Notes: a model not told the origin generated them from the letters alone. A stretch of DNA of 64,000 nucleotides from an uncultured Bacteroidaceae bacterium (GCA_964599875.1 CAZRHE010000002.1:22415-86414); one strand, 5' to 3'; positions 1 through 57,382 are shown, numbered from the stretch's first letter. A program made the numbers and translations.

Positions 1-191
1 ATGCTGTCTACGCCGTCCCCGAAAAATTCTTCTCCGGCTTCGACGTCGGCAAAGGATTGCGCAAGCGCACCGCCCTCTCGTTTGATGCGACTTATGCATT
101 TTCCGCCTTCGTTTACGGCGATTATGCCCGCAAGGCATTTGCATTTGACGTTGTGTTCACAGTTTGAAGTTTTGCAATTAATTTCTTTCAT
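1..191 (-). CDS. DUF1540-like small Cys-rich protein, N-terminal part (gene runs off left edge)
   Basis: Not in the ORF track because there is no stop in the window. ATG at 191-189 is preceded by AAGGAG with a 6-nt spacer. My translation is [41 protein letters not shown]..., a Cys pattern resembling Firmicute DUF1540 proteins. Confidence 0.5.
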
Positions 192-256
192 GGCGTACTC
201 CTTGAGGTTAGTATTCCCCGTTTTGCAAAAATTAAACCATCCGTTATTATTTTGGA

Positions 257-285
257 TTGAAATACGCACGCGTATGTGTTACAAT
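257..285 (+). promoter_or_regulatory. sigma-A type promoter upstream of rplI
   Basis: TTGAAA (257-262), 17-nt spacer, TGT-TACAAT (extended -10, 280-285). Confidence 0.5.
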
Positions 286-303
286 ATGGAAAAGGAGTAT
301 ATT

Positions 304-750
304 ATGAAAGTTATTTTGTTACAAGACATCAAAGGTCAAGGCAAAAAAGGCGATATCGTCACCGTCAACGACGGATATGCACGCAACTGCTTGCTCAAAA
401 AAGGTCTTGCGCTCGAAGGCACTCCGCAAAATTTGTACGTAGCCGAACAACGCAAGAAATCCGCAGAAGCAAAAGCCGCTCAAGAAAAGGCGGATGCTCT
501 CGCACTTGCTGAAAAACTCAAAAACGTTACCATAGAGGTTAAGGCAAGAGGGGGAGAGAATAACGGCAAAATGTTCGGCAGCGTCACCAACGACGACGTA
601 GCGAAAGCCCTTGCGGAACAAGGTTACGACCTCGACAAAAAGAAAATCGAACTCAAAGAAAACATTCGCGATTTCGGTGATTTCGAAGTTATCGTGCGCG
701 TGTATGCAGGCGTGCAACAAACTCTCAAAATCCGCGTCGTCAGAGCATGA
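304..750 (+). CDS. rplI: 50S ribosomal protein L9
   Basis: [36 protein letters not shown]... is a typical L9 N-terminus. AAGGAG RBS lies upstream of ATG 304. The track ORF 1..750 is an upstream read-through extension. Confidence 0.95.
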
Positions 751-1454
751 GCGAATTCGTAACCTTTCTCACGGGGGATTACAAGGTCATACAGGACGAC
801 GATAAGTATTTGTTTTCGGCGGACTCCGTTCTTCTTGCGAATTTGTCGTCGATAGGCGGGAGCGATTCGGTTATCGAACTCGGCGCGGGAAGCGGAGTTA
901 TTTCCATTCTCGTAGCGGTCAAAAAGAACGCGAAGAAAGTCGTGGGCGTCGAGATAGACTCTGCAACTTGCGATATGGCAATGCGTAGCGTCAAGATGAA
1001 CAAACTCGACGACAAAATCGAAATGATTTGCGGCGACGTCAAAAATTTATCCTCGTTCGTCGCAAGCGGAAGTTTCGATAAAGCGATAATGAATCCGCCT
1101 TATTTTTCTCCTAACGACGGCACTTCGGGCGGCGGCGTCAAGGCAAGTGCAAGGAAAGAATGCGAAGGCACTCTCGAAGATTTCGTGGGGGCGGCGGCGT
1201 ACGCACTTAAAAACGGCGGGGACTTATTCTTGTCGTATAAGTTCGACAGGCTGTGCGATTTGTTCGTCGTTTTGCGCCGTCACGGGCTTGAACCGAAACG
1301 TATTTATCTCGTTTATCCCAAACTCTCCAAAGGTGTGGATACGGTGATTGTGTCCGCAAGAAAGGGCGGCAAAGTCGGGCTTATCCCCGAAACTCTCGTC
1401 GTGATGGACGAGGAGGGAAGATACACCCCCGACGTAAAAAAACTATACGATTGA
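747..1454 (+). CDS. SAM-dependent N6-adenine methyltransferase, YabB / tRNA1(Val) m6A37 (TrmN6)-like
   Basis: SAM motif ELGAGSGV and catalytic NPPYF motif. ATGA overlap with the rplI stop. Sits upstream of rsmI, as yabB-yabC does in Bacillus. Confidence 0.8.
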
Positions 1455-1455
1455 T

Positions 1456-2259
1456 ATGGCGAAACTGTACATTGTAGGCACGCCGATAGGCAACCTCGGC
1501 GATATAACTCTCCGCGCACTCGAAACGCTGAAAAGCGCAGATATAATCGCGTGTGAAGACACGCGTCATTCCCTTGCGCTTTTGAACAAGTACGATATAA
1601 AAGCGAAACTCGTCGCTTATCACAAATTCAACGAAGTGGAGTGTGGCGGAAAACTCATAGCGGAAATCAAGGACGGCAAAAACGTCGCGCTCATCACGGA
1701 CGCGGGCATGCCTTGTATATCGGACCCCGGCTCCATACTCGTTGCAAGGTGCAGAGAAGAGGGGGTCGAAGTGGAATCAGTCCCCGGACCTACGGCGCTA
1801 ACTACCGCCATTGCTTTGAGCGGAATACAGAGCACGGGATTCACATTTTTGGGGTTTTTGCCTGAAAAAACGAAAGATAAAGTGGCGATTTTGTCAAAAG
1901 TGAAAGATACGGGACTTCCTTTTGTTATATACGTCGCGCCCCACGACCTAAACAAAATTGCGTCCTCTTTATATGAAATTTTAGGGGACAGAAAGGTGTA
2001 CGTCGTGAGAGAAATAACCAAACTTTACGAGAGCGTCACCGTCACGTCGCTATCTTCGTTTGAGTGCGAAGAGCGCGGAGAAATCGTTATGATAGTTGAT
2101 GCGGGAGAGAACAAAAACGCATATCTCGATATGACGATTGAAGAGCATTTGAGGGCGTATTTAGAAAGTGGAATGGACAAAAAAGAGGCGGTCAAAAAGG
2201 TCGCGTCCGAAAGGGGAGAACCTAAAAACGTCGTATATCAAATAGCGTTGAATTTGTAA
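1456..2259 (+). CDS. rsmI: 16S rRNA (cytidine1402-2'-O)-methyltransferase
   Basis: LYIVGTPIGNLGDITLRALETLKSADIIACEDTRHS is the tetrapyrrole-methylase-fold RsmI signature. Confidence 0.93.
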   Translation: MAKLYIVGTPIGNLGDITLRALETLKSADIIACEDTRHSLALLNKYDIKAKLVAYHKFNEVECGGKLIAEIKDGKNVALITDAGMPCISDPGSILVARCREEGVEVESVPGPTALTTAIALSGIQSTGFTFLGFLPEKTKDKVAILSKVKDTGLPFVIYVAPHDLNKIASSLYEILGDRKVYVVREITKLYESVTVTSLSSFECEERGEIVMIVDAGENKNAYLDMTIEEHLRAYLESGMDKKEAVKKVASERGEPKNVVYQIALNL

Positions 2260-2304
2260 GGATTATCTATTCCGATAGTTTATATAAACCAAAAACAATA
2301 AGAA

Positions 2305-2338
2305 AATCCCCGCCGACTTTTCGGCGGGGATTCATTTT
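2305..2338. terminator. bidirectional rho-independent terminator between rsmI and the T4CP-like gene
   Basis: ATCCCCGCCGA (2307-2317) / TCGGCGGGGAT (2321-2331), 11-bp GC-rich stem, flanked by an A-run and a T-run. Confidence 0.85.
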
Positions 2339-4157
2339 AATCATCGTAACTTGACGGCCTACTGCCTAAATTGAAGTAATCGTCTACGACTTTTTCGTAC
2401 GTAAATTGAGGCGACTTGAAAGACTTCTGCGAGTAAGGAGTGCAGGTCTTGAGCCCTTTGCTGAAATTCTTGAAAGTGCCTTGCGCCGCGCAAGCGTAAC
2501 TTCTGATGAATTGTGAAGTTATGACGGGCATATATAGGCGTTTCACGTACATTTGACCGGGCTTTATAAGGTCGAGGTCGCTGACAGGTACGAGAGCGAC
2601 TTCTTGTATGGAGTTGATTTTCGGGAGAATTTTGGATTCGAACGTCGGGACGTGATGCTTTCCGCATTCTTCGGAGAAGAGTTCTTTCGTATTTCTATTC
2701 TGTGCACCGAGGAATATATGTGAGTTGCAGTTGTCGCGAATGACGACGGATTTTTCCGAACCGTATACGATATCAATCTGTTGATAAGATTGAATTGCAA
2801 GGTGGAACCAAATATTTCTCGATCTTGCCGTCGCGATTTTGTTTTCAAAGTCCTTGATTTCGGGAATGTTGCCAAATTCGTCGAGGAGGAAGTGCAACGT
2901 CCTTGTGGATTCTCCGTTTTCCACTTTCTCGATCATTTGCCTATATACCCAATCGATGAAAAGTCCCGCGATTTGGAAATCGCTCTTTTCGTAGTCGCGA
3001 GTGATGAGAAAAATCGCAAAGGGTTGTTTTTCGGAATTATCCACGGTAATCGTGCTGTTGGTCGTTAAGGCGAATATGTGTCCGCTGAACCAGTCTTTCA
3101 TCGAGCCGTCGAAGATGCCGCAATAACTGCGCATGGTCCTCATTGCGTTGTCGAGCGCTTCGGACATAAGCAATATGGGTTTCTTCGATTTACCTTTGAG
3201 AAGAGGATGTCCGGGAAGTCGAATTTTGCCGGAGAGAATGGGCAATTTAAGCGTCGTGTAATAGTCTTGCAACGTGCTCAAGTTCATCATATCGCGGGTG
3301 AATCCGCTTTCGGGATCGATTGCGTCTTCGAGCATGCAATAAATAAGACCTTTGAGGAGTTCTTGCGCACCCATTTCCCACGTCGGATCTTTTGTGCTCT
3401 TGATGGATATCATCATATTTGCCAGTTGATTGACAAGACTGTCGATTTCGGCGCCGAGGAAGTCGCGTTTGAAATTCACGTATTCTTCGAACTTTTCTCC
3501 GTCGGGGAACGCCTTTCCGTCGTATTCGATATAGCCGTCGCTTGAATACATCTTTTTGGGGCAAGCGTATTCAAGGCTTTTTTTGACTCTACCCGTGTGC
3601 ATAAGCGCACCTTTTCCGACCGAAAGAGTGCTCATTTTCATATCGTATACTTCGAGAAGGGGATTCCATCTGTCCGAACGAATCAAATCCTTGAAGTTGA
3701 GCACGAAAGTCTGATAACCTTGGTCTTTCAAGTGCTGTGCGTTTCTTTCGAAAAGTTCACCTTTCGGGTCGGTCAGGAAGAGGTTGGGTTTGTTCTTTTG
3801 AGAGGAAATCGCACGAAGTTGCGGTTCGACGCAACCGGTGGTTTTTCCGCTTCCCGTCGTACCGATATAGATATCGTGGTAGTTGGGAAGGAAATAGAAC
3901 CTTAATTCGCATTTTCCTTTTTCTTCTGCGGAAAGTTTTTCGAATTCGTTCATCGAATACGCTTTGCCGTCGGGGGATACATAATCGCTTGCGACGGGGA
4001 ATCCGTCCACTTCGGTGTCGGGGAGGTCCTTATAGAGTACGACTTGAAGACCGTCTTCTTCAGTTAGTTCGGTGTAATCGATTTGTTTCGAGCATTCGAG
4101 ATAGTCTTCTTCGTATTTTGATCTGATTGAATCTATGATGGAATTTTTCGTAGTCAT
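2337..4157 (-). CDS. TraG/TraD/VirD4-family type IV coupling protein-like ATPase, no predicted TM anchor
   Basis: Walker A GTTGSGKT, Walker B-like LHFLLDEFGNIP and RSRNIWFHLAIQSYQQ, all typical of T4CPs. The N-terminus (MTTKNSIIDSIRSKYEEDYLE...) is hydrophilic. AAGGAGG RBS lies 5 nt before the ATG. Confidence 0.8.
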   Translation of the reverse strand: MTTKNSIIDSIRSKYEEDYLECSKQIDYTELTEEDGLQVVLYKDLPDTEVDGFPVASDYVSPDGKAYSMNEFEKLSAEEKGKCELRFYFLPNYHDIYIGTTGSGKTTGCVEPQLRAISSQKNKPNLFLTDPKGELFERNAQHLKDQGYQTFVLNFKDLIRSDRWNPLLEVYDMKMSTLSVGKGALMHTGRVKKSLEYACPKKMYSSDGYIEYDGKAFPDGEKFEEYVNFKRDFLGAEIDSLVNQLANMMISIKSTKDPTWEMGAQELLKGLIYCMLEDAIDPESGFTRDMMNLSTLQDYYTTLKLPILSGKIRLPGHPLLKGKSKKPILLMSEALDNAMRTMRSYCGIFDGSMKDWFSGHIFALTTNSTITVDNSEKQPFAIFLITRDYEKSDFQIAGLFIDWVYRQMIEKVENGESTRTLHFLLDEFGNIPEIKDFENKIATARSRNIWFHLAIQSYQQIDIVYGSEKSVVIRDNCNSHIFLGAQNRNTKELFSEECGKHHVPTFESKILPKINSIQEVALVPVSDLDLIKPGQMYVKRLYMPVITSQFIRSYACAAQGTFKNFSKGLKTCTPYSQKSFKSPQFTYEKVVDDYFNLGSRPSSYDD

Positions 4158-4167
4158 AACTGCCTCC

Positions 4168-5070
4168 TTAAAAACCTAATCTTTCGTTGGGGTCTGCGGA
4201 GGAGTTCGTGACTTCTCTCCAATCTTGGTTGCGATAGTTGTTGATATAGTACATCTTCTTGAAGTAGTCGAGTTCGGGGGAAGAGAGCGCTTCGATAAAC
4301 GAGAAGTCGATATTGTAACGCTCGTATGCGTAAACTACGTCTTGCTTTATGGAAGACGCATACACGTAATATTCTCTCGCTTTTTCGGAGTATGTGTTTT
4401 TCTCGGACGAGGGAAGAACGGTGCAGCCCGATTTAAGATACTTTTCAAAGAGTTCCGCAAGTTCGTGGAACACGGCGGAGTTTTCTTCGTCGCCGATGAG
4501 GGAATACGCGTACGAGATAAAGTGCGCGGAGGGGATATCTCCCCAGAACGTGCATTGGAAAAGTCGTCTGATGCCCTCTTTGACGTCGACGGGACAGCCT
4601 ATGCCCAGCACGCGCATAATCCCCGTTTGTCGCGTGGTAATAAGGTCGCCCGTTGCGCTCGCGGTGCTGATTTTGGAAAAACGCACGTTTGCCTGATAGG
4701 TTTTGTAGTGTGAGTAATCGAACCAACCGGGGTTGATTTCTCCTTTTGCGTCGTCGTGCATTTTTTGCAATTTGGTGAGGACGTCGCCCTTTATGTCGAA
4801 CAAAACGTCTTTATCCGAATACTCGTCCCAAAGCGTCCTGTCGCCGTATATGGCAAGTTGGTCGGTGTGCAAACCGAGCATTGTCAAATCGTTCAAGATA
4901 AGGGAAGAGCAGTCCTCGATGAAATCGTCGTCGAGGCGATATGATTTGCCGATAAAGTGAATAACTTTTTTGGCGTCCTCAATAAATGCTGGTGATAATG
5001 CGTTTGACATCACGGTCGTCGATAGCACCATGTTGTAAAACGCCTCGTAATTTTCAAAAAATTTGTTCAT
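4168..5070 (-). CDS. hypothetical protein with one Sel1/TPR-like repeat
   Basis: The segment GIMRVLGIGCPVDVKEGIRRLFQCTFWGDIPSAHFISYAY resembles a Sel1 repeat. The stop is 10 nt from the T4CP-like start, so the two form an operon. Start chosen at MNKFF (GGAG plus 9 nt); the track start at 5109 is less likely. Confidence 0.6.
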   Translation of the reverse strand: MNKFFENYEAFYNMVLSTTVMSNALSPAFIEDAKKVIHFIGKSYRLDDDFIEDCSSLILNDLTMLGLHTDQLAIYGDRTLWDEYSDKDVLFDIKGDVLTKLQKMHDDAKGEINPGWFDYSHYKTYQANVRFSKISTASATGDLITTRQTGIMRVLGIGCPVDVKEGIRRLFQCTFWGDIPSAHFISYAYSLIGDEENSAVFHELAELFEKYLKSGCTVLPSSEKNTYSEKAREYYVYASSIKQDVVYAYERYNIDFSFIEALSSPELDYFKKMYYINNYRNQDWREVTNSSADPNERLGF

Positions 5071-5100
5071 CTTTGTCATCTCCTGTACTACTTCGATTAC

Positions 5101-5129
5101 ATAATACAATTTTTTCTCGCAAATGTCAA
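5101..5129 (-). promoter_or_regulatory. sigma-A type promoter for the Sel1-like/T4CP-like operon
   Basis: On the minus strand: TTGACA (5129-5124), 17 nt, TATTAT (5106-5101). Confidence 0.5.
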
Positions 5130-5138
5130 TGGAGAACG

Positions 5139-5177
5139 AATATCGATATTGACCAAAATCCGAATCCGTGATATATT
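5139..5177 (+). promoter_or_regulatory. promoter for the three-paralog operon with an overlapping 12-bp palindrome
   Basis: Perfect palindrome AATATCGATATT (5139-5150) overlaps the -35 TTGACC (5149-5154). A 17-nt spacer follows, then TGA-TATATT (extended -10, 5172-5177). Confidence 0.5.
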
Positions 5178-5251
5178 TATTTCGAGGAAGGAGCGGTTTA
5201 TGGTCGTCCGTCGACGGATGAAATTCCCGTCGCTCCGAAAGGAAGGAATCA

Positions 5252-6721
5252 ATGGATAATTCTAATACGTATTATATAGTTTTCAAGAATTTAAGTGAAC
5301 GCGATTTTATCACTTTAAGCGACGTTTCCGAATGGTGCGACGGCTCGCTGAAGGATGCTTTCGACGTTATCAAATTTTTGGCTTCCAACGGTGCGGTTAA
5401 GGACGTAGGAAAAGGGAAATTCAAAGTTATCGCGGACGAGGGAATATTTGAAAATATGCGCAGAGAAATCAACTGCTATAAACGCGCGATAAGCGAGGAA
5501 AGATTGCAAGAAATCGCGGATACTATGCCGCTGCAACTGCTTTCCGTCATAGGGTTTCTCGAAAGAAATCCCGGCGCGACTTACGTGGAAATCAGAGATT
5601 TCGTGCGTGAAGTCGTGGAGAAAGACCCTCTTTATTATCTTGCGGAAAGCGGAATAATCGTAGCCGTGCAAGACGGTTACATAATGCGTTATTACAACAC
5701 GATTCCAACCGAAACGATAAATCGCTTGCCCCATCTTTTATCAAACAGTATAGCGACGAACAAAGGCGTCGGATTGACTGAAAGGTTTGCCTTTTGCGGA
5801 TTCGACTCGTGGGAAGAATGGCATTACGGCGAGGACGAGGAAATCGAAAATCCGCAAGAAGTCGAAATCGAAGAGGTAGACCTCATAACGCGGATAATGC
5901 GCAAAATGATCGGCAACGAGTCTTTTGCGGATGAAGAAGCGGAAAGGAAAAAGGAATATCTTGCGTCGAAAATCACAGACGTTTTCAAGGATAGGACTTT
6001 TCCCGTCGTGTTCGAAAATTCGAAAGGCGTGAAATTGGCGATTTCGGATGCGACCATACACGGCGATCCGTACGACTGGTTAAAAAAATGCGTTATGGAG
6101 AGCGACGATGCCACCATACTCGAATTTTTCGGCGTTGACGTCAATTTGCCCGAGTTGAGAAAAACGGAATGTATTGCGATATCTCTACTTATTGACAGTC
6201 TAACTTTGAAGTATAACGACAAAGTCGGAGAAGTCCATATGGGTATGAACCTGGATACGAACGAAGCCGACAATATTACTTATAGATATTTGATGCGCTA
6301 CGGTGCGCTTAAATTCAACGCCGAAGTTGATACGAGCGAAACCCGATTAAGTGATTTCCGTTTCCATCAAAAACGTGTTTGGTGTTGCGTCACGGACGTT
6401 CCCGTCACCCTCGAAAACAAAGAGGTGCCGGGCGTTACTTTGCATGCGCGCGTGTCTTTGAACGGGGTCGCAAAGTACGTCGTAAAAAGCGCGGCGTACA
6501 CAAACTTGATAAGCGATATAAAACCTTTCCTCGGAAAGTATTTCACAAAGGAAAAGGACCCTTTCGACTCGTACTTGGCTGAAGCGTACGTCGTCATGGA
6601 AAGCGAACGGAAGTTGGTACTTGAAAAAGAACTGGTTACACAACTGAGTGAAGAAGAGGTGGCGTCTATCAACGGCGATACCGGAATAACAATCAAATGC
6701 GTTTTTAAGGATAAAAAGTAG
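5252..6721 (+). CDS. hypothetical protein, paralog A (two wHTH-like modules + acidic linker + shared C-domain)
   Basis: N-terminus ITLSDVSEWCDGSLKDAFDVIKFLASNGAVKDVGKGKFKVI aligns with the N-termini of the next two ORFs. GGAAGGA RBS. Confidence 0.75.
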   Translation: MDNSNTYYIVFKNLSERDFITLSDVSEWCDGSLKDAFDVIKFLASNGAVKDVGKGKFKVIADEGIFENMRREINCYKRAISEERLQEIADTMPLQLLSVIGFLERNPGATYVEIRDFVREVVEKDPLYYLAESGIIVAVQDGYIMRYYNTIPTETINRLPHLLSNSIATNKGVGLTERFAFCGFDSWEEWHYGEDEEIENPQEVEIEEVDLITRIMRKMIGNESFADEEAERKKEYLASKITDVFKDRTFPVVFENSKGVKLAISDATIHGDPYDWLKKCVMESDDATILEFFGVDVNLPELRKTECIAISLLIDSLTLKYNDKVGEVHMGMNLDTNEADNITYRYLMRYGALKFNAEVDTSETRLSDFRFHQKRVWCCVTDVPVTLENKEVPGVTLHARVSLNGVAKYVVKSAAYTNLISDIKPFLGKYFTKEKDPFDSYLAEAYVVMESERKLVLEKELVTQLSEEEVASINGDTGITIKCVFKDKK

Positions 6722-6730
6722 GCGGGATAT

Positions 6731-8539
6731 ATGGAAAACGAAAGAAACAAAATTGAACAAAACTGCGAGAATAATTTGTCTTACCGTATTTTCGACCTAC
6801 TTGAACACGGCGACGTTTTGACTTTCGACGACGTCGTGGAGTGTTGCGATACTCCGTCGAAGGCGTTTTCTACTATGAAATATCTTGTGAGAACGGGTTT
6901 TTTGAAAGAGAAAAGAAACGGAAAGTATGCGATTTTGTGTGGTGCGGAGGATATTCTCGAAATAAGGCGGGCAACTAAAAATTTCAAGAAAAGATACAGC
7001 GAGGATGAAATCGAAAAGTTTTGCAACCTTTCGCCTTCCGCTTGTATAACTACGTTGGATGTTATCGATGCAAACGGCGGTGCGACTTATCTCGATATTT
7101 ATGCGGAAGCGCGTTTCACCGTGCCTTATAATCCTTTGCCGTATTTGCTGAATTACGGCGCGGTCGTTTATTATGACGGGAAGTATTACAGCACTTTTGA
7201 CACCGAAGTCGTTAGAAATACGTATGTAAATTGTCACGGCGAAGGGTTGTCCCGCGAAGAGCGTGAACTCAATTTAAGGCGGTGGAGATGGAAAGAACCG
7301 ACCGACGATATCGATTCCTATTTTTCTCGATTGAAAAACGAAACCGACTGGGACGGCTGGGGATATGACGATTATGCAGATTACGGCGTCGTTCCTTTGG
7401 ATTACGACTTTGAAATCGGTGACGTAACGGAAGAAGAAGTCGCCGAAAAATTAAACGAATTCGTCGACGCAAGAATAAATGCGTACAAAGAAGAACTCGA
7501 TAAAGAAGATGACGACGAAGACGATGAAGACGACGAAGAAGAGAACAACCGCCGCAGAGATTTGCTTAGGAAACTTTCAAGAGCGGAAGCGACGAGCATA
7601 ATCAGAGATCCGTCGGACGATCACCTGCGCGAACGATTGTATGTTAATATGACGCGCAAAAACAGATTCGACGATTATCGCATCAACGTAATCGGCGAAA
7701 ACGGCAAAAAAGTTAGGGAGAAAGAACAATTATTCAACATGAGCGGAGGCTTAAATAATATTGCTTACAATTTGGCGTATGAGGACGAAACCGAATTGCA
7801 AGGACTTTTGGACGTCATAAACTTCGACGCAAAGGATTATAAGATCACTCGCGGCAAGGCGATATACGATATCGTCGACAAAATGTACGTTCAAGTAAGT
7901 GCGGAAATTGCGGAAATCGAAAAGGCGGACGACACTTATACTTATCTTAAATACGACGAAATCGACGTCTTGAAAGAAATGGTCGAAAACGGCAAAGCGT
8001 CGGGGCTCGAAGATAAAGTGTTTTTGGACGTAATGGCAGAAGAATTGTTTAGACAATCATTCGACGATTTGGACCACGACGGCGTCCTCGTCGAACTCGC
8101 ATTGAAAAGGGAATTGACGGTTTTTCTCACTTTCATAAAGGACGAGGAAAAACTAAACGAACTCAGAGACGACCAAACGAAGTTTGCGGTGAGCACCGCC
8201 GTCACTGAGATTGTTTTCGTCAACGAATACGGGAAAGAATTGAACGCATGGCTGAACGTTGAAAGACGTCCCGACGTACTTCTCGAAATTGCGTTTGCTT
8301 TCAACGGAGAAGATGCGGTGAAGGATTATTTCGGCGTTGCGGAGATGCCCGTCGACGTCTACGACCCGTTTTTGGATATGGACGAACTCGTCGAATCGGT
8401 TGAAATTCTCGTCGGAGACGAACACGTCCCTCTCGACATGCACGATTGCGTTTTACCCCAATTGGAGCAAGAACAAATACTTAAACTGCGCGGGAAGAAA
8501 ATATTCCGCATAACCACTAACCCTAATTTGAGAGGTTAA
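6731..8539 (+). CDS. hypothetical protein, paralog B (two wHTH-like modules + poly-acidic linker + shared C-domain)
   Basis: LTFDDVVECCDTPSKAFSTMKYLVRTGFLKEKRNGKYAIL; a RRWRWKE motif; the acidic run DKEDDDEDDEDDEEEN; the C-terminal block ESVEILVGDEHVPLDMHDCVLPQLEQEQILKL matches paralog C. Confidence 0.75.
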   Translation: MENERNKIEQNCENNLSYRIFDLLEHGDVLTFDDVVECCDTPSKAFSTMKYLVRTGFLKEKRNGKYAILCGAEDILEIRRATKNFKKRYSEDEIEKFCNLSPSACITTLDVIDANGGATYLDIYAEARFTVPYNPLPYLLNYGAVVYYDGKYYSTFDTEVVRNTYVNCHGEGLSREERELNLRRWRWKEPTDDIDSYFSRLKNETDWDGWGYDDYADYGVVPLDYDFEIGDVTEEEVAEKLNEFVDARINAYKEELDKEDDDEDDEDDEEENNRRRDLLRKLSRAEATSIIRDPSDDHLRERLYVNMTRKNRFDDYRINVIGENGKKVREKEQLFNMSGGLNNIAYNLAYEDETELQGLLDVINFDAKDYKITRGKAIYDIVDKMYVQVSAEIAEIEKADDTYTYLKYDEIDVLKEMVENGKASGLEDKVFLDVMAEELFRQSFDDLDHDGVLVELALKRELTVFLTFIKDEEKLNELRDDQTKFAVSTAVTEIVFVNEYGKELNAWLNVERRPDVLLEIAFAFNGEDAVKDYFGVAEMPVDVYDPFLDMDELVESVEILVGDEHVPLDMHDCVLPQLEQEQILKLRGKKIFRITTNPNLRG

Positions 8540-8540
8540 T

Positions 8541-10274
8541 ATGAGCGAGAAAACAGGCAAGAACGAAATGTCCGAAATGTTGATAAAAAAATTGACGGCA
8601 AGCGGAGAATTGACCTTTGATTCCGTTCTCGACGAGTGCGGAGGAAATGCGGTCAAGGCTTTTGCGTATATTAAATATCTTGTCGAAAACGGCTATATCC
8701 GCGACAAGAAAAAGGGCAAATTCGAGGTTTTGGATAAGGCTAAAAACGTCGGCAATTACAAAAAGCAATTTCCGAGAAGTTTCATAAAAAACTTAATCGA
8801 CGTCGTTCATCGCAATTCCATACGCGCGCTTTTCGACCTTGAAGACAAGGGCGGTGTGGAGTGCGAGGAGTTTTTGGAGAGTTGCAAGGAAGAATTCACC
8901 TATAATCCCATACCTTTTTTGGAATCTTGCGGCGCAATAGTTTGCCGCGACGGCGCGTATTTCAACGCGATTCCCGTCGAATCTTTCGGCGATTTGTTGG
9001 ATTTTCTCACGTACACGATAAGAGGGGATTTGAAAGATTACGAGCGCGAAATTTGTTTCAAGCGTTGGGCTTGGGAGGAGGACGAGGATATCTCGCCTTA
9101 TGATTGCGATTACGAATATTTCGAATACGACGAGAGCAAAGGATATTGTCCCGATACGAGCGACTACGACGAGTATTACGAAGAGGACGACCGCGACGAA
9201 GAGGGTAGAATCATCTTGGACCCCGACGAAGAAAAACTCTTGATGGAGATTATTGCGTATCAGGAGGAGTTGAAAAAGGAAGAAGAGGATACGGCGGACG
9301 AAACGCCCGACGAGGATTCGAACGATAAAAAGCATAGCCCGTATGAATACGTGCGCATTTGCGAAACCGAGCACGACAGAGAAAGAGAAACAAAAATAAG
9401 AGAGAGAACGCTAAGGAATATTTGCAGTTTGAAAAGACTTATGCACGCCACTCTCGTGAACGAGCACGGCATGAAACTCGAAACGGATTTCATCGTGACG
9501 GACAGTTTAAAGGACGTAGTCGTGCACGCTATCAGGCACAGTTCGATAGATGAATTAAAGGGCTTTTTCGGCAGAGAAATCGACGCAAGGGACTTGAAAT
9601 CGACGGACGGCTACTATTTTTACGGTTTCGTCAAAGATATCTATATGGAGTTGGACGGTTCGAGCGTGCGCTCCGAAAGAATCGTCTATCCCAACACCGT
9701 AAGTCTTCCGAAATCCATGAGATACTGGTTGAAAGATAAAATGATTCCCGAGGTTAAGGACAAGGAATACGTCGTCGTCGACAAAAAGGAATCTTTCTCC
9801 GTGCCGTTTATTAACTATCTACCCGACGGATTCAGCACCCAACTCAACGATAAAAAAACGCTCACTTTCTACGTGCGACTGGAAAGCGACGGCGTGCTTA
9901 AAAGCGTAAACAAAATGCAACGAGAAACCGCCGTCGAAAAGTTCGAAAGAAAGTTGCTGTTCACAAGTAAACGTGCGGACCTTTTGATTTCGTATATGAA
10001 TTTGGACAGATTTCCTCTCGACCTTTTGAGAATGACGTTCGCGTTAAGCGGCGCGGAAGAAGTGCATAAATTCGCGCACGGTACGAAAATGGATAAGGAA
10101 AATTTGGATTATGCGTCCGCCGCGCTTGACGAAGTGGATAGCGTGAGTATTATAATAGACGACGAGGAAACCGTCCTCGACAACGAGCGCACCGTCTTGA
10201 AACAACTCGAATATAAGGATATATTGCGAATGGATTACGGCGTGGTGTTCCGCGTGAAATTCAAGGGAGAATAA
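8541..10274 (+). CDS. hypothetical protein, paralog C (two wHTH-like modules + acidic linker + shared C-domain)
   Basis: LTFDSVLDECGGNAVKAFAYIKYLVENGYIRDKKKGKFEVL; a KRWAWEE motif; an acidic region; starts 1 nt after the paralog B stop. Confidence 0.75.
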   Translation: MSEKTGKNEMSEMLIKKLTASGELTFDSVLDECGGNAVKAFAYIKYLVENGYIRDKKKGKFEVLDKAKNVGNYKKQFPRSFIKNLIDVVHRNSIRALFDLEDKGGVECEEFLESCKEEFTYNPIPFLESCGAIVCRDGAYFNAIPVESFGDLLDFLTYTIRGDLKDYEREICFKRWAWEEDEDISPYDCDYEYFEYDESKGYCPDTSDYDEYYEEDDRDEEGRIILDPDEEKLLMEIIAYQEELKKEEEDTADETPDEDSNDKKHSPYEYVRICETEHDRERETKIRERTLRNICSLKRLMHATLVNEHGMKLETDFIVTDSLKDVVVHAIRHSSIDELKGFFGREIDARDLKSTDGYYFYGFVKDIYMELDGSSVRSERIVYPNTVSLPKSMRYWLKDKMIPEVKDKEYVVVDKKESFSVPFINYLPDGFSTQLNDKKTLTFYVRLESDGVLKSVNKMQRETAVEKFERKLLFTSKRADLLISYMNLDRFPLDLLRMTFALSGAEEVHKFAHGTKMDKENLDYASAALDEVDSVSIIIDDEETVLDNERTVLKQLEYKDILRMDYGVVFRVKFKGE

Positions 10275-10278
10275 AGAT

Positions 10279-10653
10279 ATGGATTTCAAAAAATTGTTAT
10301 CCGGTTACGTCGATGAAATCACGATAAGACAATGGGACGACTTCGCGGTATTTTCAGTCCCCGTCTATTTCATGGGCACGATGGAAAGTATGGCGATAAG
10401 CGTGCGCGAGATTGAAAGCGGATTCGTCTTTTCGGATTGTCATCGCACCGTTGATTATTGGGAAGAACTGGATTTAGACACCACGCAATACGAAGAGAAA
10501 ATCGAAAAAATTCGCGATTCGTTCAATATCGAAAGACGGGGCAACGAATTTATCATGACCGCACAAAGCGAATGTGAAACTGTGTTGATGAATATGTTCG
10601 GATACTTTTTGCAAGGGATAATTATGCTTGCAAACGTAGCGATTGTAAAGTAG
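10279..10653 (+). CDS. small hypothetical protein, possibly DUF1828-like
   Basis: Starts 4 nt after paralog C, with the RBS AAGGGAGA inside the upstream gene. The pattern ISVREIESGFVFSDCHRTVDYWEEL...KIEKIRDSFNIERRGNEF recalls DUF1828. This is a recollection only. Confidence 0.55.
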   Translation: MDFKKLLSGYVDEITIRQWDDFAVFSVPVYFMGTMESMAISVREIESGFVFSDCHRTVDYWEELDLDTTQYEEKIEKIRDSFNIERRGNEFIMTAQSECETVLMNMFGYFLQGIIMLANVAIVK

Positions 10654-10745
10654 TGCGTGCCTGTGTGAAAACAAAGAAAATAGAAGAAAGTAACCGCAGG
10701 TTATTTGAACGATAATAGCAGAATAAACAGTTTAGAGGTGTAGAT

Positions 10746-11285
10746 ATGAGTAAAAAAGTATTGATTTTGTCGGGTAGTCCCAGAAAAGACGGCAACTCCG
10801 ATATGCTTTGCGACGAGTTTGCAAGGGGTGCGAGAGAAAGCGGAAACGAGGTCGAGAAAATAAGAATCGCGGATAAGAAAGTCGGCTATTGCAGAGCGTG
10901 TTATTATTGCGCGTCCCACGGCGGAGAGTGCGCGATTAAAGACGATATGGCGGATATTTTGCAAAAGATGATAGACGCCGACGTTTTGGTGCTTGCAAGC
11001 CCCGTGTACTTCTATTCCATAGACGCACAACTCAAAGCGGTCATAGACAGAACGGTCGCGCGTTGGCTCGAAGTCAAGGATAAGGAATTGTATTATATCG
11101 CCACTTGCGCGGACACCGAAAACGCATCCGTCGAAACAACGTTTGCTTGTTTCAGAGGTTATGCGGATTGCGTGGAAGGCGCAAAAGAAATGGGACTTAT
11201 ATACGGCACGGGTGCATACGAAAAAGGCGAAATCGCATCTTCTCCCGCGATGAAAGAAGCATACGATACGGGACTTCGCGTATAA
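10746..11285 (+). CDS. NADPH-dependent FMN reductase / iron-sulfur flavoprotein family protein
   Basis: MSKKVLILSGSPRKDGNSDMLCDEF...GYCRACYYC is typical of the flavodoxin-like fold FMN reductases. Confidence 0.8.
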   Translation: MSKKVLILSGSPRKDGNSDMLCDEFARGARESGNEVEKIRIADKKVGYCRACYYCASHGGECAIKDDMADILQKMIDADVLVLASPVYFYSIDAQLKAVIDRTVARWLEVKDKELYYIATCADTENASVETTFACFRGYADCVEGAKEMGLIYGTGAYEKGEIASSPAMKEAYDTGLRV

Positions 11286-11314
11286 GGTAAAACGGGTGGA
11301 CAAAAAGCAAGAAT

Positions 11315-21646: not shown

Positions 21647-22321
21647 ATGGCTAAACGTTTCGTATGCCCGTCGTGTGGAAGACGCATAGAAATATCCGAT
21701 GACGAGATTATTTGCTGTGAATGTGGAAAGAAATATAAGAATCCTTTATTGAAAGAGAGAGAACAGGCGTATGAGGAGGGTTTTTGGAGATACGTTCGAA
21801 TTGAACGAGATGATCGCGATGAACAAAACTTTTTACTATTTGATAAAGGGCAGTTTACTAAATACAAAATCAAATGCGAATGCATTGATGAAGACGTTAT
21901 GACGGAGGATCATCGTAACGAGATCCTTTATAAATTAAAAGATAAGATGTTGTTTGAAGACTATTATTTCGTTTCCGATGCATTGAAAAAGTGTCCTGAT
22001 AGAAAATTTGATCAGATTATTTTAAGAGAGTATAAATCTCCATATGCCACGCATGCGTTTTCTCTTTTGTTTGGTGCACTTGGCATAGATAGATTTTATA
22101 TGGGTGATATTGCGCAAGGGATTGTAAAATTAATTTTTTGCTTGTTTTCTCTGATAATGTATATGTGCGGGAGATTTATTCCAGTAGCACCATTGTTTGT
22201 GTTTGGAGAAATATTATTAGGAATTGTGTGTTTCGTACAACTTTGCGAAATATTTATATGCTTCCGTAAAACAAAACAAAATAACTACTTTCTTGTGAAG
22301 GAAATTATTGAATTGAAATAG
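21647..22321 (+). CDS. zinc-ribbon + TM2-domain membrane protein (paralog 1)
   Basis: N-terminal CPSCG...CCECGKKYKNP and C-terminal TM2 signature FGALGIDRFYMGDIAQGIVKL followed by a second TM. Confidence 0.8.
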   Translation: MAKRFVCPSCGRRIEISDDEIICCECGKKYKNPLLKEREQAYEEGFWRYVRIERDDRDEQNFLLFDKGQFTKYKIKCECIDEDVMTEDHRNEILYKLKDKMLFEDYYFVSDALKKCPDRKFDQIILREYKSPYATHAFSLLFGALGIDRFYMGDIAQGIVKLIFCLFSLIMYMCGRFIPVAPLFVFGEILLGIVCFVQLCEIFICFRKTKQNNYFLVKEIIELK

Positions 22322-22400
22322 ATATATAATGTCGACTGCTAACACTCGATATTGACACACGGGACAAAAAGTAATATCCTATTGATAAGGAGATATTATT

Positions 22401-23000
22401 ATGGCTAAATACGTTAAATGTCCTGCGTGCGGTGCGATTTTGCCTATATCCTCGGAGGAATCTATAAACTGCAGTTGCGGCGTAAAGTTAAGAAACCCGT
22501 ATTACAATGGACCTATATATAACCTTCAATCGAGTCGTTTGTCAAGCGGGCAGATTTCCGCAATAATGGCGAAGTATTCGAGTGCGTTGCCGTCGGGCGA
22601 TATTCCCGTGATATACGAAATGCTTGGAAGGTGCCATGAATCGAAATATTCATCCTTTATGGATATTAAGATTAAATCACCCGTTGCCGCTACGATTATA
22701 TCGATATTTTTCGGTGGAATCGGAGTGGATAGGTTTTACGTCGGTGACAAAAAGGCTGGATTTGGAAAACTTGCGCTTTGGCTGATTACGCTGATATTGA
22801 CGATTTGCACTATTGTTAAATATATGGGCTTCATAAATAGCGGTGTGGAAACAAACGACTTATATGCTTTGATTGGGTATTACGTGGGAATTGCAATTGT
22901 CGGATTTGCATTGTCTACGTGGTGTTTTGTCGATATGTTCATCATTCACAGTCGCGCGAAAAAGGCTAATGCAAAAAGATTTTACGAAACGATAGGTTGA
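22401..23000 (+). CDS. zinc-ribbon + TM2-domain membrane protein (paralog 2)
   Basis: CPACG...CSCGVKLRNP and FGGIGVDRFYVGDKKAGFGKL. Confidence 0.8.
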   Translation: MAKYVKCPACGAILPISSEESINCSCGVKLRNPYYNGPIYNLQSSRLSSGQISAIMAKYSSALPSGDIPVIYEMLGRCHESKYSSFMDIKIKSPVAATIISIFFGGIGVDRFYVGDKKAGFGKLALWLITLILTICTIVKYMGFINSGVETNDLYALIGYYVGIAIVGFALSTWCFVDMFIIHSRAKKANAKRFYETIG

Positions 23001-28361: not shown

Positions 28362-28733
28362 CTATTTTTTATCGGGTTTTGGAATAGGGGAGAAGCACTT
28401 ATCGAGTTCCCCTCTTCTTTCAAGCACTTCGTAGAGGTCGTCGGGGACGTTGTCGATGATTTGCGGATTGCGCGTGAAACATAAGTATTCATTGGATAAA
28501 TCCACGTTGCTCGCGTGCAACAGTATCAAATCTTCTTCTTTGACCACTAAGTCAACGTCCGAGCAGGACCACATGCCGTCTTCTTCTTGGAAAATTTCGC
28601 CCTCGAAAATAACGAGCCAGCAACCCCCTATTTTTCTCGGGTCCATGATGCATCCTTTGGCTCCTTTATGTAACCCCATGCTTGCATAATATTCATTCTC
28701 TACGTTTAGAGCAACCCAATCGTATTCTTGCAT
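28362..28733 (-). CDS. DUF4926-like small protein (immunity/antitoxin-type), paralog 1
   Basis: 123 aa. The SH3-like N-half MQEYDWVALNVENEYYASMGLHKGAKGCIMDP is DUF4926-like by recollection. The C-terminus is nearly identical to the next gene. Confidence 0.65.
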   Translation of the reverse strand: MQEYDWVALNVENEYYASMGLHKGAKGCIMDPRKIGGCWLVIFEGEIFQEEDGMWSCSDVDLVVKEEDLILLHASNVDLSNEYLCFTRNPQIIDNVPDDLYEVLERRGELDKCFSPIPKPDKK

Positions 28734-28741
28734 AATGCCTC

Positions 28742-29113
28742 CTATTTTTTATCGGGTTTTGGGATAGGGGAGAAACACTTGTCGAGTTCACCTCTTCTTT
28801 CAAGCACTTCGTAGAGGTCGTCGGGGACGTTGTCGATGATTTGAGGATTGTGCGTGAAACATAAGTATTCTTCGGATAAATCAACGTTCATCGCTTTTAC
28901 GAGTCTTAAGTCCTCTTCTTTGACGTTTACGTAAGCATCCGAACAAGTCCAGACGCCGTCTTCACCTTGGAAAATCTCTTTGTCAAAAATAACGAACCAA
29001 GTGCCTTCGATTTTTCGCGGGTCCATAATGGTGCCTATATCCCCTTTGTGTGCACCCTCTTTGGCGTAGCACTCTTTTTCGACTATCAACTCAACAATAT
29101 CATATTCTTGCAT
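28742..29113 (-). CDS. DUF4926-like small protein (immunity/antitoxin-type), paralog 2
   Basis: 123 aa from ATG 29113 (AAGGAG RBS). MQEYDIVELIVEKECYAKEGAHKGDIGTIMDP. The last 140 nt or so are about 94 percent identical to 28361-28500. Confidence 0.65.
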   Translation of the reverse strand: MQEYDIVELIVEKECYAKEGAHKGDIGTIMDPRKIEGTWFVIFDKEIFQGEDGVWTCSDAYVNVKEEDLRLVKAMNVDLSEEYLCFTHNPQIIDNVPDDLYEVLERRGELDKCFSPIPKPDKK

Positions 29114-29166
29114 ATAATCAAATCTCCTTATTATGAGTATAATATAGCTTTGTAAAGTTTGCAAAT

Positions 29167-29745
29167 TTATTTTTTTTGATTTGCAAATGGCGTTGCAAGC
29201 AAAATTTTCCCGTCAGGGTAAACGGTCCAACCTGTTTTAAACGCAATATACTCGCCGTTGTCTTTTCGTTTAAGTATAATTTCAATGTTGATTGATTGAG
29301 AATACTTGTTTAAATTTGTGAGAGTGTAATTCCCGGTAGAATAAGCAATATATGCTTGTTTTGCAAATTCTTTTTGCAAATATTCAGAGTCGTTAATATC
29401 AAATCCCCACGATTCAAAAAGTTGTTTTTTATCTCCTACCTCATGATGAACGAATGCATATCTTGTAAATTTAATTATTGGACATTCTACCATAACGGTC
29501 ATATGCTGTACGTTTTTCAAAAAGCAATGGCAATGTGGATGGTGTGGGATTGTAGGACACTTGTCAATAACAAAACAACAGCCGTTCAAATTTAAGCAAA
29601 TAGAGCAGTGTGAAGTATTGTTTTGTTCAGCATATATTCTTTTCATTTCTGCTGTGGTTGCCGGTGCCGTGCCGGGATGAATGATTTTTACCCATTCTTC
29701 CATACACAATTTTTCTAAAAGTTTTCCTGCTTCCGATAAGTTCAT
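29167..29745 (-). CDS. MuF/SPP1-gp7 C-terminal motif fused to a putative toxin domain (DUF6883-like)
   Basis: CSICLNLNGCCFVIDKCPTIPHHPHCHCF matches the C-x-x-C...L-N-G...P-x-x-H-P-x-C-x-C motif of phage head-morphogenesis MuF proteins. The C-terminal 110 aa (KFTRYAF..GDKKQLFESWGF ... WTVYPDGKILLATPF) resemble a domain seen in toxin-antitoxin contexts. Confidence 0.6.
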   Translation of the reverse strand: MNLSEAGKLLEKLCMEEWVKIIHPGTAPATTAEMKRIYAEQNNTSHCSICLNLNGCCFVIDKCPTIPHHPHCHCFLKNVQHMTVMVECPIIKFTRYAFVHHEVGDKKQLFESWGFDINDSEYLQKEFAKQAYIAYSTGNYTLTNLNKYSQSINIEIILKRKDNGEYIAFKTGWTVYPDGKILLATPFANQKK

Positions 29746-33413: not shown

Positions 33414-34244
33414 ATGCTTAAAATAGAAAATTTGACAAAGAAATATCCCAAAAGCGACAGACTTGCGGTAGATAATATCAGCATCGAACTTCAACCCGGT
33501 GAAATCTTCGGATTCCTCGGACAAAACGGCGCGGGCAAATCTACCACCATTAAATGCCTCACGGGCATACTTCCTTTCGACGGCGGCACGATTGAAATCT
33601 GCGGACACGATATCGTGAAAGACCCTATCGGCGCGAAGATGAATATGGGTTACGTCCCCGACAACCATTCCGTGTACGAAAAACTCACGGGCAGAGAATA
33701 CGTCAATTACGTTGCGGACCTATATAAAGTTTCTCTTGCGGACAGAACGGAAAGATTCGAGCGTTATCTCGACCTTTTCAAACTTCGTTACGCGGCGGAT
33801 AGACAAATCAAAGCGTATTCCCACGGTATGAAACAAAAGATTTGTATCATAGCGGCGCTTATACACGAGCCTAAACTTTGGGTTCTCGACGAACCGATGA
33901 TGGGTCTTGACCCTCAATCCACTGCGGAAATCATCGCGCATATGCGTGAACATTGCGCAAAAGGCAACACGGTTTTCTTCAGTTCGCACAACCTCGACCT
34001 CGTCAAAAAACTCTGCGACAGAGTGGCGGTCATCAACGAAGGCAAACTCATCGACATGTTCGACCTCAAAGATAACGAACAAAACAAAGCGAATCTCGAA
34101 GAAAGATTCTTCAAAATCACCGGCACTTACGAAAAACGTTTGTTCGAGGACTACGCCGCACAAGAAAGCGCGGATATGCGCCCCGACCTTCCTCTTGAAG
34201 AAGTTGCAACCGAAGACGTCGCCGAAACGGAGGACAAGGACTGA
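33414..34244 (+). CDS. ABC transporter ATP-binding protein (ABC-2 type)
   Basis: Walker A GQNGAGKST, signature YSHGMKQK and Walker B LWVLDEP. Confidence 0.93.
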   Translation: MLKIENLTKKYPKSDRLAVDNISIELQPGEIFGFLGQNGAGKSTTIKCLTGILPFDGGTIEICGHDIVKDPIGAKMNMGYVPDNHSVYEKLTGREYVNYVADLYKVSLADRTERFERYLDLFKLRYAADRQIKAYSHGMKQKICIIAALIHEPKLWVLDEPMMGLDPQSTAEIIAHMREHCAKGNTVFFSSHNLDLVKKLCDRVAVINEGKLIDMFDLKDNEQNKANLEERFFKITGTYEKRLFEDYAAQESADMRPDLPLEEVATEDVAETEDKD

Positions 34245-38692: not shown

Positions 38693-38761
38693 TCTCGCGT
38701 GAGTGCGTAACAATAAATAACGGCGCGCGTGCCTGCGCACGCGCCACCTATACGGAGTAAT

Positions 38762-57358: not shown

Positions 57359-57382
57359 GCAAAATAGTTACGGAAGCGTTTT

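Follow-up and report, generated by a model that had tools for sequence, protein, structure and literature searches.

What a type IV coupling protein (T4CP) does on a chromosome with no relaxase and no secretion channel beside it is the question raised by a six-gene locus in a 64,000-nucleotide stretch of DNA from an uncultured Bacteroidaceae bacterium (GCA_964599875.1, CAZRHE010000002.1:22415-86414; this whole stretch is called the window here). T4CPs are the textbook gatekeepers of conjugation and effector secretion, and a branch of them free of transmembrane segments and of type IV secretion system (T4SS) genes would show exaptation for a cellular function. The six genes form two divergent arms: one holds the gene of the T4CP-like ATPase and that of a partner protein, g313, and the other holds three genes of a family named PAR here (parA, parB, and parC) followed by the gene of a small acidic protein, g124. 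Comparisons of gene content and gene neighborhood show that this is an undescribed chromosomal, multigene system built on an exapted T4CP, in line with the original prediction; literature searches found no description of the gene set, and no known PADLOC system matched it. In a paper on Menshen, T4SS-DNA_transf is mentioned only as a rare NsnA sensor domain. By homology, the conserved core of the system is the two-gene pair of g313 and the ATPase, not all six genes.

The conserved pair of a soluble ATPase and its partner

The assignment of the ATPase to the T4CPs, made at first by reading the sequence, was borne out by Pfam, in which T4SS-DNA_transf (1e-31) and TraG-D_C (1e-23) both lie above the gathering score; the all-alpha domain inserted in the nucleotide-binding domain is present as well (TrwB_AAD_bind, 1.5e-19, 70.6 bits versus a cutoff of 20.5). 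Walker A (GTTGSGKT) is located at residue 99 and Walker B (FLLDEFGN) at residue 423 of the window ATPase, and both motifs are intact in every one of the 80 homologs whose sequence spans them; in the pair-type ATPases, Walker A is at about residue 97. Two extensions, at the N terminus (residues ~1 to 90) and at the C terminus (~506 to 606), are specific to the family. The protein had been described as soluble, and indeed it has no transmembrane segment, with a maximum KD19 hydropathy of 0.89; the median over 60 pair-type homologs is 0.98, compared with 2.1 to 2.7 for the N-terminal 60 residues in ordinary T4CPs (L070-L082), which have N-terminal transmembrane segments and T4SS-type neighbors (clusters c6, c7, c9, c10, and c12). 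The nearest curated family, NCBIfam NF045973 (Clostridial CD1115 VirD4-like), gives 220 bits, under its cutoff of 250, and the scores against the VirD4, TraD, and TraG families of NCBIfam are far under all of their cutoffs. Homologs of the ATPase number in the hundreds (53 to 67% identical, 596 to 616 amino acids; Christensenellales and other Clostridia metagenome-assembled genomes [MAGs]), and it is 31 to 34% identical to T4CPs located inside real T4SS loci. The sole PDB sequence match of its profile is Cag5 (8DOL, E 3e-4), and its PADLOC matches are weak (mad8, 31 bits; HerA, E 0.048).

Like the conjugative T4CPs (VirD4/TraG/TrwB), the window ATPase thus combines a P-loop domain containing Walker A and B, an all-alpha domain, and TraG-D_C; unlike them, it has no transmembrane anchor, scores under the family cutoff, carries its own N- and C-terminal extensions, is accompanied by an obligate g313, and has no relaxase, VirB4, or channel gene nearby. 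Judged by these sequence features, it is a T4CP by domain content that fails three defining features of the class, namely the transmembrane anchor, the T4SS/relaxase context, and the curated cutoff. The current database annotation of pair-type ATPases is misleading, and chromosomes carrying them would be wrongly flagged as carrying conjugative elements.

Homologous loci were collected by an alignment-based scan of species-representative genomes, which yielded 77 loci; a single-protein scan of genome contigs gave none. By tblastn, 64 of 82 loci have a g313 homolog as the direct upstream neighbor of the ATPase, and this adjacency holds in essentially every locus with an ATPase of at least 36% identity and sufficient contig, amounting to about 60 species-level genomes; beside the ordinary T4CPs (31 to 34% identical), g313 is absent. 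In none of these ~60 loci does the pair have a T4SS, relaxase, or integrase gene within 10 kb, so the early observation of a T4CP standing without relaxase or channel partners extends from the window to its relatives. The check on gene neighborhoods that the original prediction had proposed shows the pair to be conserved outside conjugative elements, with no T4SS context at any pair locus, and its position is stable and syntenic within clades. It occurs in gut Firmicutes (Christensenellales-like Clostridia, some Bacilli, and Acutalibacteraceae), and searches of plasmid, phage, and IMG/VR collections gave no homolog of g313. Because g313 adjoins the ATPase in so many loci (64/82) the ATPase has no transmembrane segment and no T4SS neighbors, and g313 has no counterpart in mobile collections, the comparative evidence shows the pair to be a chromosomal, vertically inherited, domesticated soluble T4CP with a dedicated, co-transcribed partner. 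A mobile-element origin of the locus was considered and dropped, with no g313 in plasmids, phages, or IMG/VR, no repeats, and no tRNA.

The partner protein almost certainly starts at the ATG at position 5070, giving 300 amino acids, because its homologs have 300 to 302 residues and a start at the TTG at 5109, to which the open reading frame (ORF) extends, would precede the minus-strand −10 box. Its earlier label, Sel1-like, survives only as a weak structural resemblance, with no match to Pfam Sel1 (PF08238) at an E value of ≤1. The AF2 model of g313 is confident (pLDDT 93.8, pTM 0.91) and all-alpha; its top PDB matches in Foldseek are all Sel1-repeat proteins and are all weak (best E 0.03, TMq ~0.3), and about 120 residues, corresponding to some three repeats, superpose on 130-residue Sel1-like repeat (SLR) proteins with a TM score of 0.6 and a root mean square deviation of ~4.5 Å. 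The model weakly suggests that g313 may be a partial SLR-like solenoid. SLR proteins (SEL1L, HcpB/HcpC, LpnE, and LceB) are the best structural matches of the model; unlike them, g313 has no match to the Sel1 hidden Markov model (HMM), no signal peptide, no transmembrane segment, and no cysteine pattern, and more than half of it lies outside the SLR-like part. Precomputed Pfam domains are absent from 109 g313 homologs, and neither g313 nor the PAR paralogs nor g124 has a match above the curated cutoffs of Pfam and NCBIfam, or any in PHROGs; PADLOC gives g313 only weak fragment matches to Cas13 and PDC-M60C. Homology between g313 and PAR was rejected (hhalign probability 0.1%). NCBI lists one g313 homolog (P0180) as “cell division protein SepF,” a name with no Pfam or NCBIfam support.

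A sister contig, L083, carries exactly the six genes of the window, and between the two the dN/dS value is 0.040 for the T4CP-like gene and 0.047 for g313, compared with 0.28, 0.29, and 0.15 for parA, parB, and parC and 0.19 for g124. Among syntenic relatives, amino acid identity is 69 to 95% for the flanking housekeeping genes, 63 to 66% for the pair, 38 to 46% for g124, and 25 to 33% for PAR, the last over the N-terminal third only. All six are real genes under purifying selection, and the PAR arm is hypervariable.

The PAR arm and the accessory genes of related loci

The three PAR proteins had been described as homologous along their full length. This holds for parB and parC (26% identity over ~600 residues, E 1e-40) and not for parA, which aligns with the other two by BLAST only over the N-terminal 175 to 200 residues, together with a short common C-terminal motif; all three end in a conserved helix and hydrophobic β-strand. 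In the predicted model of parA (pLDDT 80), two winged helices (~1 to 60 and ~82 to 149) are followed by a disordered acidic linker (171 to 226) and a confidently modeled alpha/beta C-terminal region that ends in the conserved strand. Foldseek matches are limited to the winged helices (ScpB, E 2.4e-3; MarR family; a phage TrmB_N protein, E 5e-5). The first 150 residues of PAR are thus modeled as two winged helices, in the manner of other tandem winged-helix proteins (ScpB and the N-terminal domains of TrmB and MarR); unlike in those proteins, this region is acidic in the window's clade (pI 4.7 to 5.5) and is fused to an acidic linker and an alpha/beta region. In some lineages, it is basic (pI about 9). 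Sequence profiles of PAR gave no significant match, the alpha/beta region of 250 to 400 residues is without detectable relatives, and no curated match in Pfam, NCBIfam, or PADLOC ties the paralogs to a well-characterized family. A ubiquitin/beta-grasp reading of the C-terminal region found no support (hhalign versus ubiquitin, 0.6%), and viral “ubiquitin family” matches in Foldseek (E 3e-4, poor TM score) are a weak lead.

The net-basic C-terminal tails that had been pointed out as possible T4CP signals do exist on the three proteins of the window; they are not a trait of the family, whose members carry anything from −8 to +7 charges on their last 10 residues. The signal was rejected because these tails are not conserved, and the element that is conserved is the helix plus strand. 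The small protein g124, which always follows the last PAR gene in the window's clade, belongs to a family limited to near relatives (L006, L007, L018, L083, L086, and L087). Its proposed likeness to DUF1828 failed (PF08861, 13 bits versus a cutoff of 22, E 0.14), and homology to the YbjN-like family described below was rejected as well (hhalign probability 0.2%).

In related loci, the pair is accompanied by other genes. Of the 33 pair loci flanked by 6 kb or more on each side, one accessory gene or more is present in 25, namely multitransmembrane proteins with an RyR domain (TM-RyR) in 14, ClpP in 11, YbjN-like proteins in 11, and PAR in 9. There are at least five gene orders, including g313> T4CP> TM> ClpP> ClpP> TM> PAR> in L024 and L030. 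The ClpP copies match the CLP_protease fold (Pfam, 1e-62 and 5e-38), all under the NCBIfam ClpP cutoffs. None of the triad residues Ser, His, and Asp is retained in the upstream copy of the tandem, which is catalytically dead by sequence; the downstream copy keeps the triad and would be devoid of the axial-loop region because it starts at reference position 23 to 25. In a few lineages, a single full-length ClpP stands directly upstream of g313 in place of the tandem. Two metagenomic loci retrieved from the dead copy (L089 and L090) have the pair too. Members of the TM-RyR superfamily have 550 to 1,280 amino acids, a GxGxxG Rossmann-like region, and the RyR domain at the C terminus; their profile matches RyR1 repeat structures (E 7e-11) and a bacterial RyR-domain protein (E 4e-5), and single sequences reach 24.8 bits, just below the Pfam gathering score of 27.4. 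Free RyR proteins of 95 residues occur in 7 loci. The YbjN-like family (c33, ~160 residues) is present in 16 loci; 4 of 10 members match PF10722 (YbjN; best E 8.9e-4), and no PDB sequence match was obtained. PADLOC has no match for PAR, g124, ClpP, TM-RyR, or c33. These links to the pair are frequent, not obligatory. Synteny with L007 and L018 predicts a TM-RyR gene immediately left of window coordinate 1, with its end some 260 nucleotides upstream.

The PAR family is extremely small: an exhaustive profile search of 1.84 billion proteins returned 19 representatives, which have mainly the N-terminal 170 to 200 residues in common, and a homolog search with parB gave one non-self match. An iterative HMM search of the collected loci placed PAR no more than 10 kb from the pair in about 15 of them, mostly as a single protein of 235 to 400 residues. 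All five PAR retrievals made independently of the ATPase adjoin the pair or its accessories, in three architectures. The order is pair< TM-RyR> TM-RyR> PAR> in L084, with TM-RyR> PAR> in the 2.7 kb of L085; pair< PAR> PAR> g124-like> in L086/L087, with the same rsmI/dnaI synteny as the window; and pair< YbjN-like> 91-aa> ClpP(dead)> ClpP(active)> PAR> in L088. In one syntenic slot, there is one PAR copy in L006, L007, and L018, two in L086/L087, and three in the window and L083. Because independently retrieved PAR genes always adjoin the pair or its accessories, gene neighborhoods show that the two arms are functionally linked and that PAR, although optional, is a genuine accessory of the pair, as is g124.

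Several other genes recur around these loci. In L054 (1-5702, Candidatus Enteromonas), two pair-type ATPases surround a ClpP tandem and g313, in the order T4CP> ClpP> ClpP> g313> T4CP>. A cluster of TerD, transglutaminase-core, Ser/Thr kinase, PP2C-like (590 to 750 residues), and VWA genes adjoins the pair in three lineages (L001/L002/L009, ~1-8300; L056; L062) and resembles TerY-P-type conflict modules. A PrpE/ApaH-type metallophosphoesterase (Ser/Thr phosphatase-like) lies just downstream of the T4CP-like gene in L001/2/8/9, L062-L065, and L069 and has a weak PADLOC PDC-S10 match, and RtcB recurs near the pair in L011, L030, L062, and L063. In L092 (1241-3774; also L091 and L093-L095), from the lineage whose ClpP tandem is away from the pair, the tandem is preceded by two genes, both identified by eye: a DNA-methyltransferase-like gene with an internal “RQTD” tandem-repeat insertion and a gene for a DUF262/ParB-like protein that has an HNH motif at its C terminus.

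Possible functions of the system

Our best guess, a tentative one, is that the system is a cytoplasmic ATPase machine that handles substrates by unfolding, remodeling, or degradation, and not a DNA-transfer device. In such a machine, the ATPase would form a cytoplasmic ring, as other T4CP/FtsK-HerA ATPases do, with g313 acting as an assembly or recognition adaptor of the ring. The ring may engage protein clients or adaptors, the PAR proteins, via their conserved C-terminal element and/or winged helices, and g124 or the YbjN-like proteins could serve as chaperone-like helpers; in most lineages, the clients would be passed to the unusual ClpP-like protease, and/or the ring would act at the RyR-domain membrane proteins. 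The client or adaptor role of PAR is favored by winged helices of the protein-binding ScpB type that are acidic in the window's clade, by the conserved C-terminal helix-strand element, and by the small companion protein.

A stricter version makes the T4CP ring and its SLR-like partner the dedicated unfoldase/translocase of a loop-less ClpP heterocomplex, with the PAR proteins as adaptors or regulated substrates and the RyR proteins as regulators or docking sites. We regard it as improbable; if true, it would be the first protease machine to run on an FtsK/HerA/T4CP-class ATPase instead of an AAA+ ATPase, a conjugation motor exapted to proteolysis in a large, uncultured group of gut Firmicutes. 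The complete machine is possibly categorically new. Three of its associations, with a dead plus a loop-less ClpP, with bacterial RyR-domain proteins, and with a hypervariable winged-helix family, are unpredicted by known biology, and they give testable hypotheses on a new ATP-driven machine in abundant, poorly studied gut bacteria.

Several points weigh against a substrate-handling machine of this kind. Physical interaction and proteolysis are proposed from gene content, and to our knowledge no FtsK/HerA-class ATPase partners ClpP. The best-known role of T4CPs is that of a DNA-coupling motor, and an all-alpha domain of DNA-binding type is retained here. No ClpP, TM-RyR, or YbjN-like gene is present in the 64-kb window, and the pair stands alone in eight well-flanked loci. 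In one lineage (L091-L097), the ClpP tandem is found with no pair nearby, and because it occurs there away from the pair, it may be that lineage's general ClpP. Finally, the hypervariability and variable copy number of PAR fit conflict systems at least as well as housekeeping proteostasis.

Known systems offer partial parallels. The VirD4-family ATPases Cag-beta (Cag5) of Helicobacter pylori, with CagZ, and DotL of Legionella, with IcmS/IcmW/LvgA/DotM/DotN, have small helical or chaperone-like partners that stabilize them or select their clients, and as in the pair, a VirD4-family ATPase stands beside a soluble partner, a putative one here. However, the Cag-beta and DotL complexes belong to complete membrane-spanning T4SSs, of which the pair has none, and no homology of g313 to CagZ or the Dot/Icm adaptors appeared in any test run. 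In HerA-NurA and in the HerA-Sir2 and HerA-DUF4297 defense systems, a ring ATPase of the FtsK/HerA superfamily is coupled to an effector enzyme. The logic proposed here is similar, a RecA-fold ring translocase encoded beside the partner enzyme that it feeds, whereas the partner would be a ClpP-like protease and/or membrane proteins and no nuclease or NADase, and the ATPase lies on the T4CP branch. Mixed rings of active and inactive subunits are formed by ClpP1/ClpP2 and ClpP/ClpR in actinobacteria, cyanobacteria, and plastids; the tandem of the related loci likewise has one dead and one active ClpP-family gene, but the active copy is without the ~23-residue axial-loop region, scores below the cutoffs, and has no adjacent AAA+ gene, and there is no such tandem in the window. 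None of these systems matches the whole gene set.

A different explanation is a conflict system against mobile elements (phages or plasmids), with the exapted T4CP ring sensing or capturing DNA or protein of the invader, the hypervariable PAR proteins as specificity sensors, and the RyR membrane proteins and/or ClpP as effectors. We consider this somewhat unlikely. PAR is 4 to 7 times less constrained than the pair, is only 25 to 33% identical in a syntenic slot whose flanks are 69 to 95% identical, and is present there in one, two, or three copies; the accessory set is modular and differs between lineages, some loci adjoin VWA/kinase/PP2C-like/TerD genes, RtcB, or metallophosphoesterases, and the T4CP family itself originates from mobile elements, with the weak mad8 match (31 bits) in PADLOC. 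However, no other component has a significant match to known defense genes, nor did any nuclease, NADase, or toxin domain turn up. The stable housekeeping synteny and apparently vertical inheritance, the lack of g313 homologs in plasmid, phage, and IMG/VR collections, and the strong conservation of the pair (53 to 67% identity across many genera) also speak against it.

More doubtful is a split DNA motor resembling FtsK/SpoIIIE, in which a soluble ring would move chromosomal or incoming DNA that PAR recognizes, with TM-RyR as the anchor. In its favor, T4CPs share an ATPase superfamily with FtsK, the protein here has kept its TrwB-type all-alpha “DNA-binding” domain, the PAR N termini fold as TrmB/MarR-type winged helices that are basic in some lineages, and in the window's clade the locus adjoins dnaI and dnaB. 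Yet it is in this same clade that the winged helices are acidic, and the dnaI/dnaB neighborhood is specific to it; moreover, a DNA motor leaves the ClpP tandem and the YbjN-like proteins unexplained, and no relaxase, nuclease, or recombinase is associated with it.

Protein export, by a soluble T4CP that docks on TM-RyR proteins and exports PAR with g124 or the YbjN-like proteins as secretion chaperones, appears very doubtful. It draws on the recruitment of protein substrates by T4CPs in effector-translocating T4SSs, on the relation of the YbjN family (matched in Pfam by c33) to secretion-chaperone-like folds, on the TM-RyR genes in the same operons, and on the conserved C-terminal element of PAR. 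Against it, the TM-RyR proteins have no similarity to known channels or to parts of a T4SS; the PAR proteins, which are large and acidic and have winged helices, contain neither a toxin nor an enzyme domain; and many loci have the pair with no TM-RyR gene nearby.

The arms could also be neighbors by coincidence, the pair being one unit and the paralog operon an unrelated lineage-specific family, as might be suggested by the ~45 of 60 pair loci that have no PAR within 10 kb and by the detection of PAR in only part of the phylogenetic range of the pair. This is highly improbable: a family with 19 representatives among 1.84e9 proteins is too rare for its position here to be plausibly a matter of chance, and five of five independent retrievals, in three architectures, lie beside the pair or its accessories. 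Last, the original prediction had floated a decayed conjugative remnant kept for a new function; the reading of the locus as such a remnant, now functionless, is effectively refuted: although the nearest characterized relatives are conjugative T4CPs (CD1115, 220 bits; 31 to 34% identity to T4SS-locus T4CPs), it is contradicted by purifying selection (dN/dS of 0.04 to 0.05 for the pair and 0.15 to 0.29 for the paralogs) and by wide conservation, with Walker motifs intact in 80/80 homologs covering the region, uniform length, and a pair kept in ~60 species-level genomes across many families, and neither T4SS debris nor an integrase nor flanking repeats came to light.

Layout of the locus and other features of the window

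The six ORFs lie where they had been placed, in two divergent operons (Table 1) whose promoters are strong and have −35 boxes at 5124-5129 and 5149-5154, about 20 bp apart, and the plus-strand arm is as tightly packed as had been described, with spacers of 9, 1, and 4 nucleotides. The minus-strand operon ends at a strong, bidirectional intrinsic terminator, which separates the T4CP-like gene from rsmI.

Table 1. Genes and regulatory features of the locus (window coordinates)
Feature	Position	Strand	Description
Terminator	2304-2333	both	12-13 bp stem, 8 GC pairs, T-runs on either strand
T4CP-like gene	2337-4157	−	606 aa
g313 gene, as originally called	4168-5109	−	313 aa; ORF open back to TTG 5109
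g313 gene, as corrected	4168-5070	−	300 aa; ATG at 5070
g313/T4CP promoter	5101-5129	−	sigma-70-type, 11/12 matches; TTGACA 5129-5124, 17 bp, TATTAT 5106-5101
Paralog-operon promoter	5149-5177	+	sigma-70-type, 10/12 matches; TTGACC 5149-5154, 17 bp, extended −10 TG, TATATT 5172-5177
parA	5252-6721	+	489 aa; PAR family
parB	6731-8539	+	602 aa; PAR paralog
parC	8541-10274	+	577 aa; PAR paralog
g124 gene	10279-10653	+	124 aa; small acidic protein

The flanks are housekeeping genes, as had been read from the sequence: L9, a methyltransferase, and rsmI on one side and flavodoxin, DnaI-like, and DnaB/DnaD-like genes on the other, identified by Pfam annotation of the syntenic loci L086/L087 and by reading the ORFs of the window. 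The remainder of the window is ordinary chromosome (AbrB/SpoVT-like, PolA, CoaE, transporters, and a MoxR-like cluster). The absences noted at the outset also stood up: ORF inspection of the 64 kb revealed no evident relaxase or T4SS channel gene, VirB4 included, and no integrase-like ORF, repeats around the locus are short and imperfect with none beyond chance, and there is no obvious compositional shift (GC 0.43 to 0.47 at the locus versus 0.46 to 0.50 in the flanks, a difference of no more than 0.03 to 0.05). No tRNA was found in the window, and no regulatory RNA was matched there by Rfam.

The closest relatives of the window, L006, L007, and L018, are deposited as “uncultured Bacteroidaceae bacterium” MAGs. 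This label looks wrong because their gene content is of Firmicute type (DnaI, DnaB/DnaD loaders, and AbrB/SpoVT) and they are syntenic with the window. Next to the locus, a 200-residue ORF (10701-11303, minus strand) antisense to the flavodoxin-like gene (10746-11285, plus strand) is almost certainly spurious and may mislead automated gene callers. Farther along, two adjoining paralogs of 224 and 199 residues (21647-23000, plus strand) have a zinc-ribbon-like CxxC...CxxC motif at the N terminus, and three tightly packed small genes (28362-29745, minus strand), two paralogs of 123 and 140 residues and a Cys/His-rich protein of 192 residues, form a cassette-like group. Two tandem paralogs of ~905 residues, each with an N-terminal transmembrane helix (35966-41446, plus strand), are preceded by an ABC-transporter ATPase/permease pair (33414-35950). 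By eye only, the region 56363-62863 (plus strand), with a MoxR-like AAA ATPase, a DUF58-like protein, and two large transmembrane proteins, resembles a Bat/MoxR-VWA operon.

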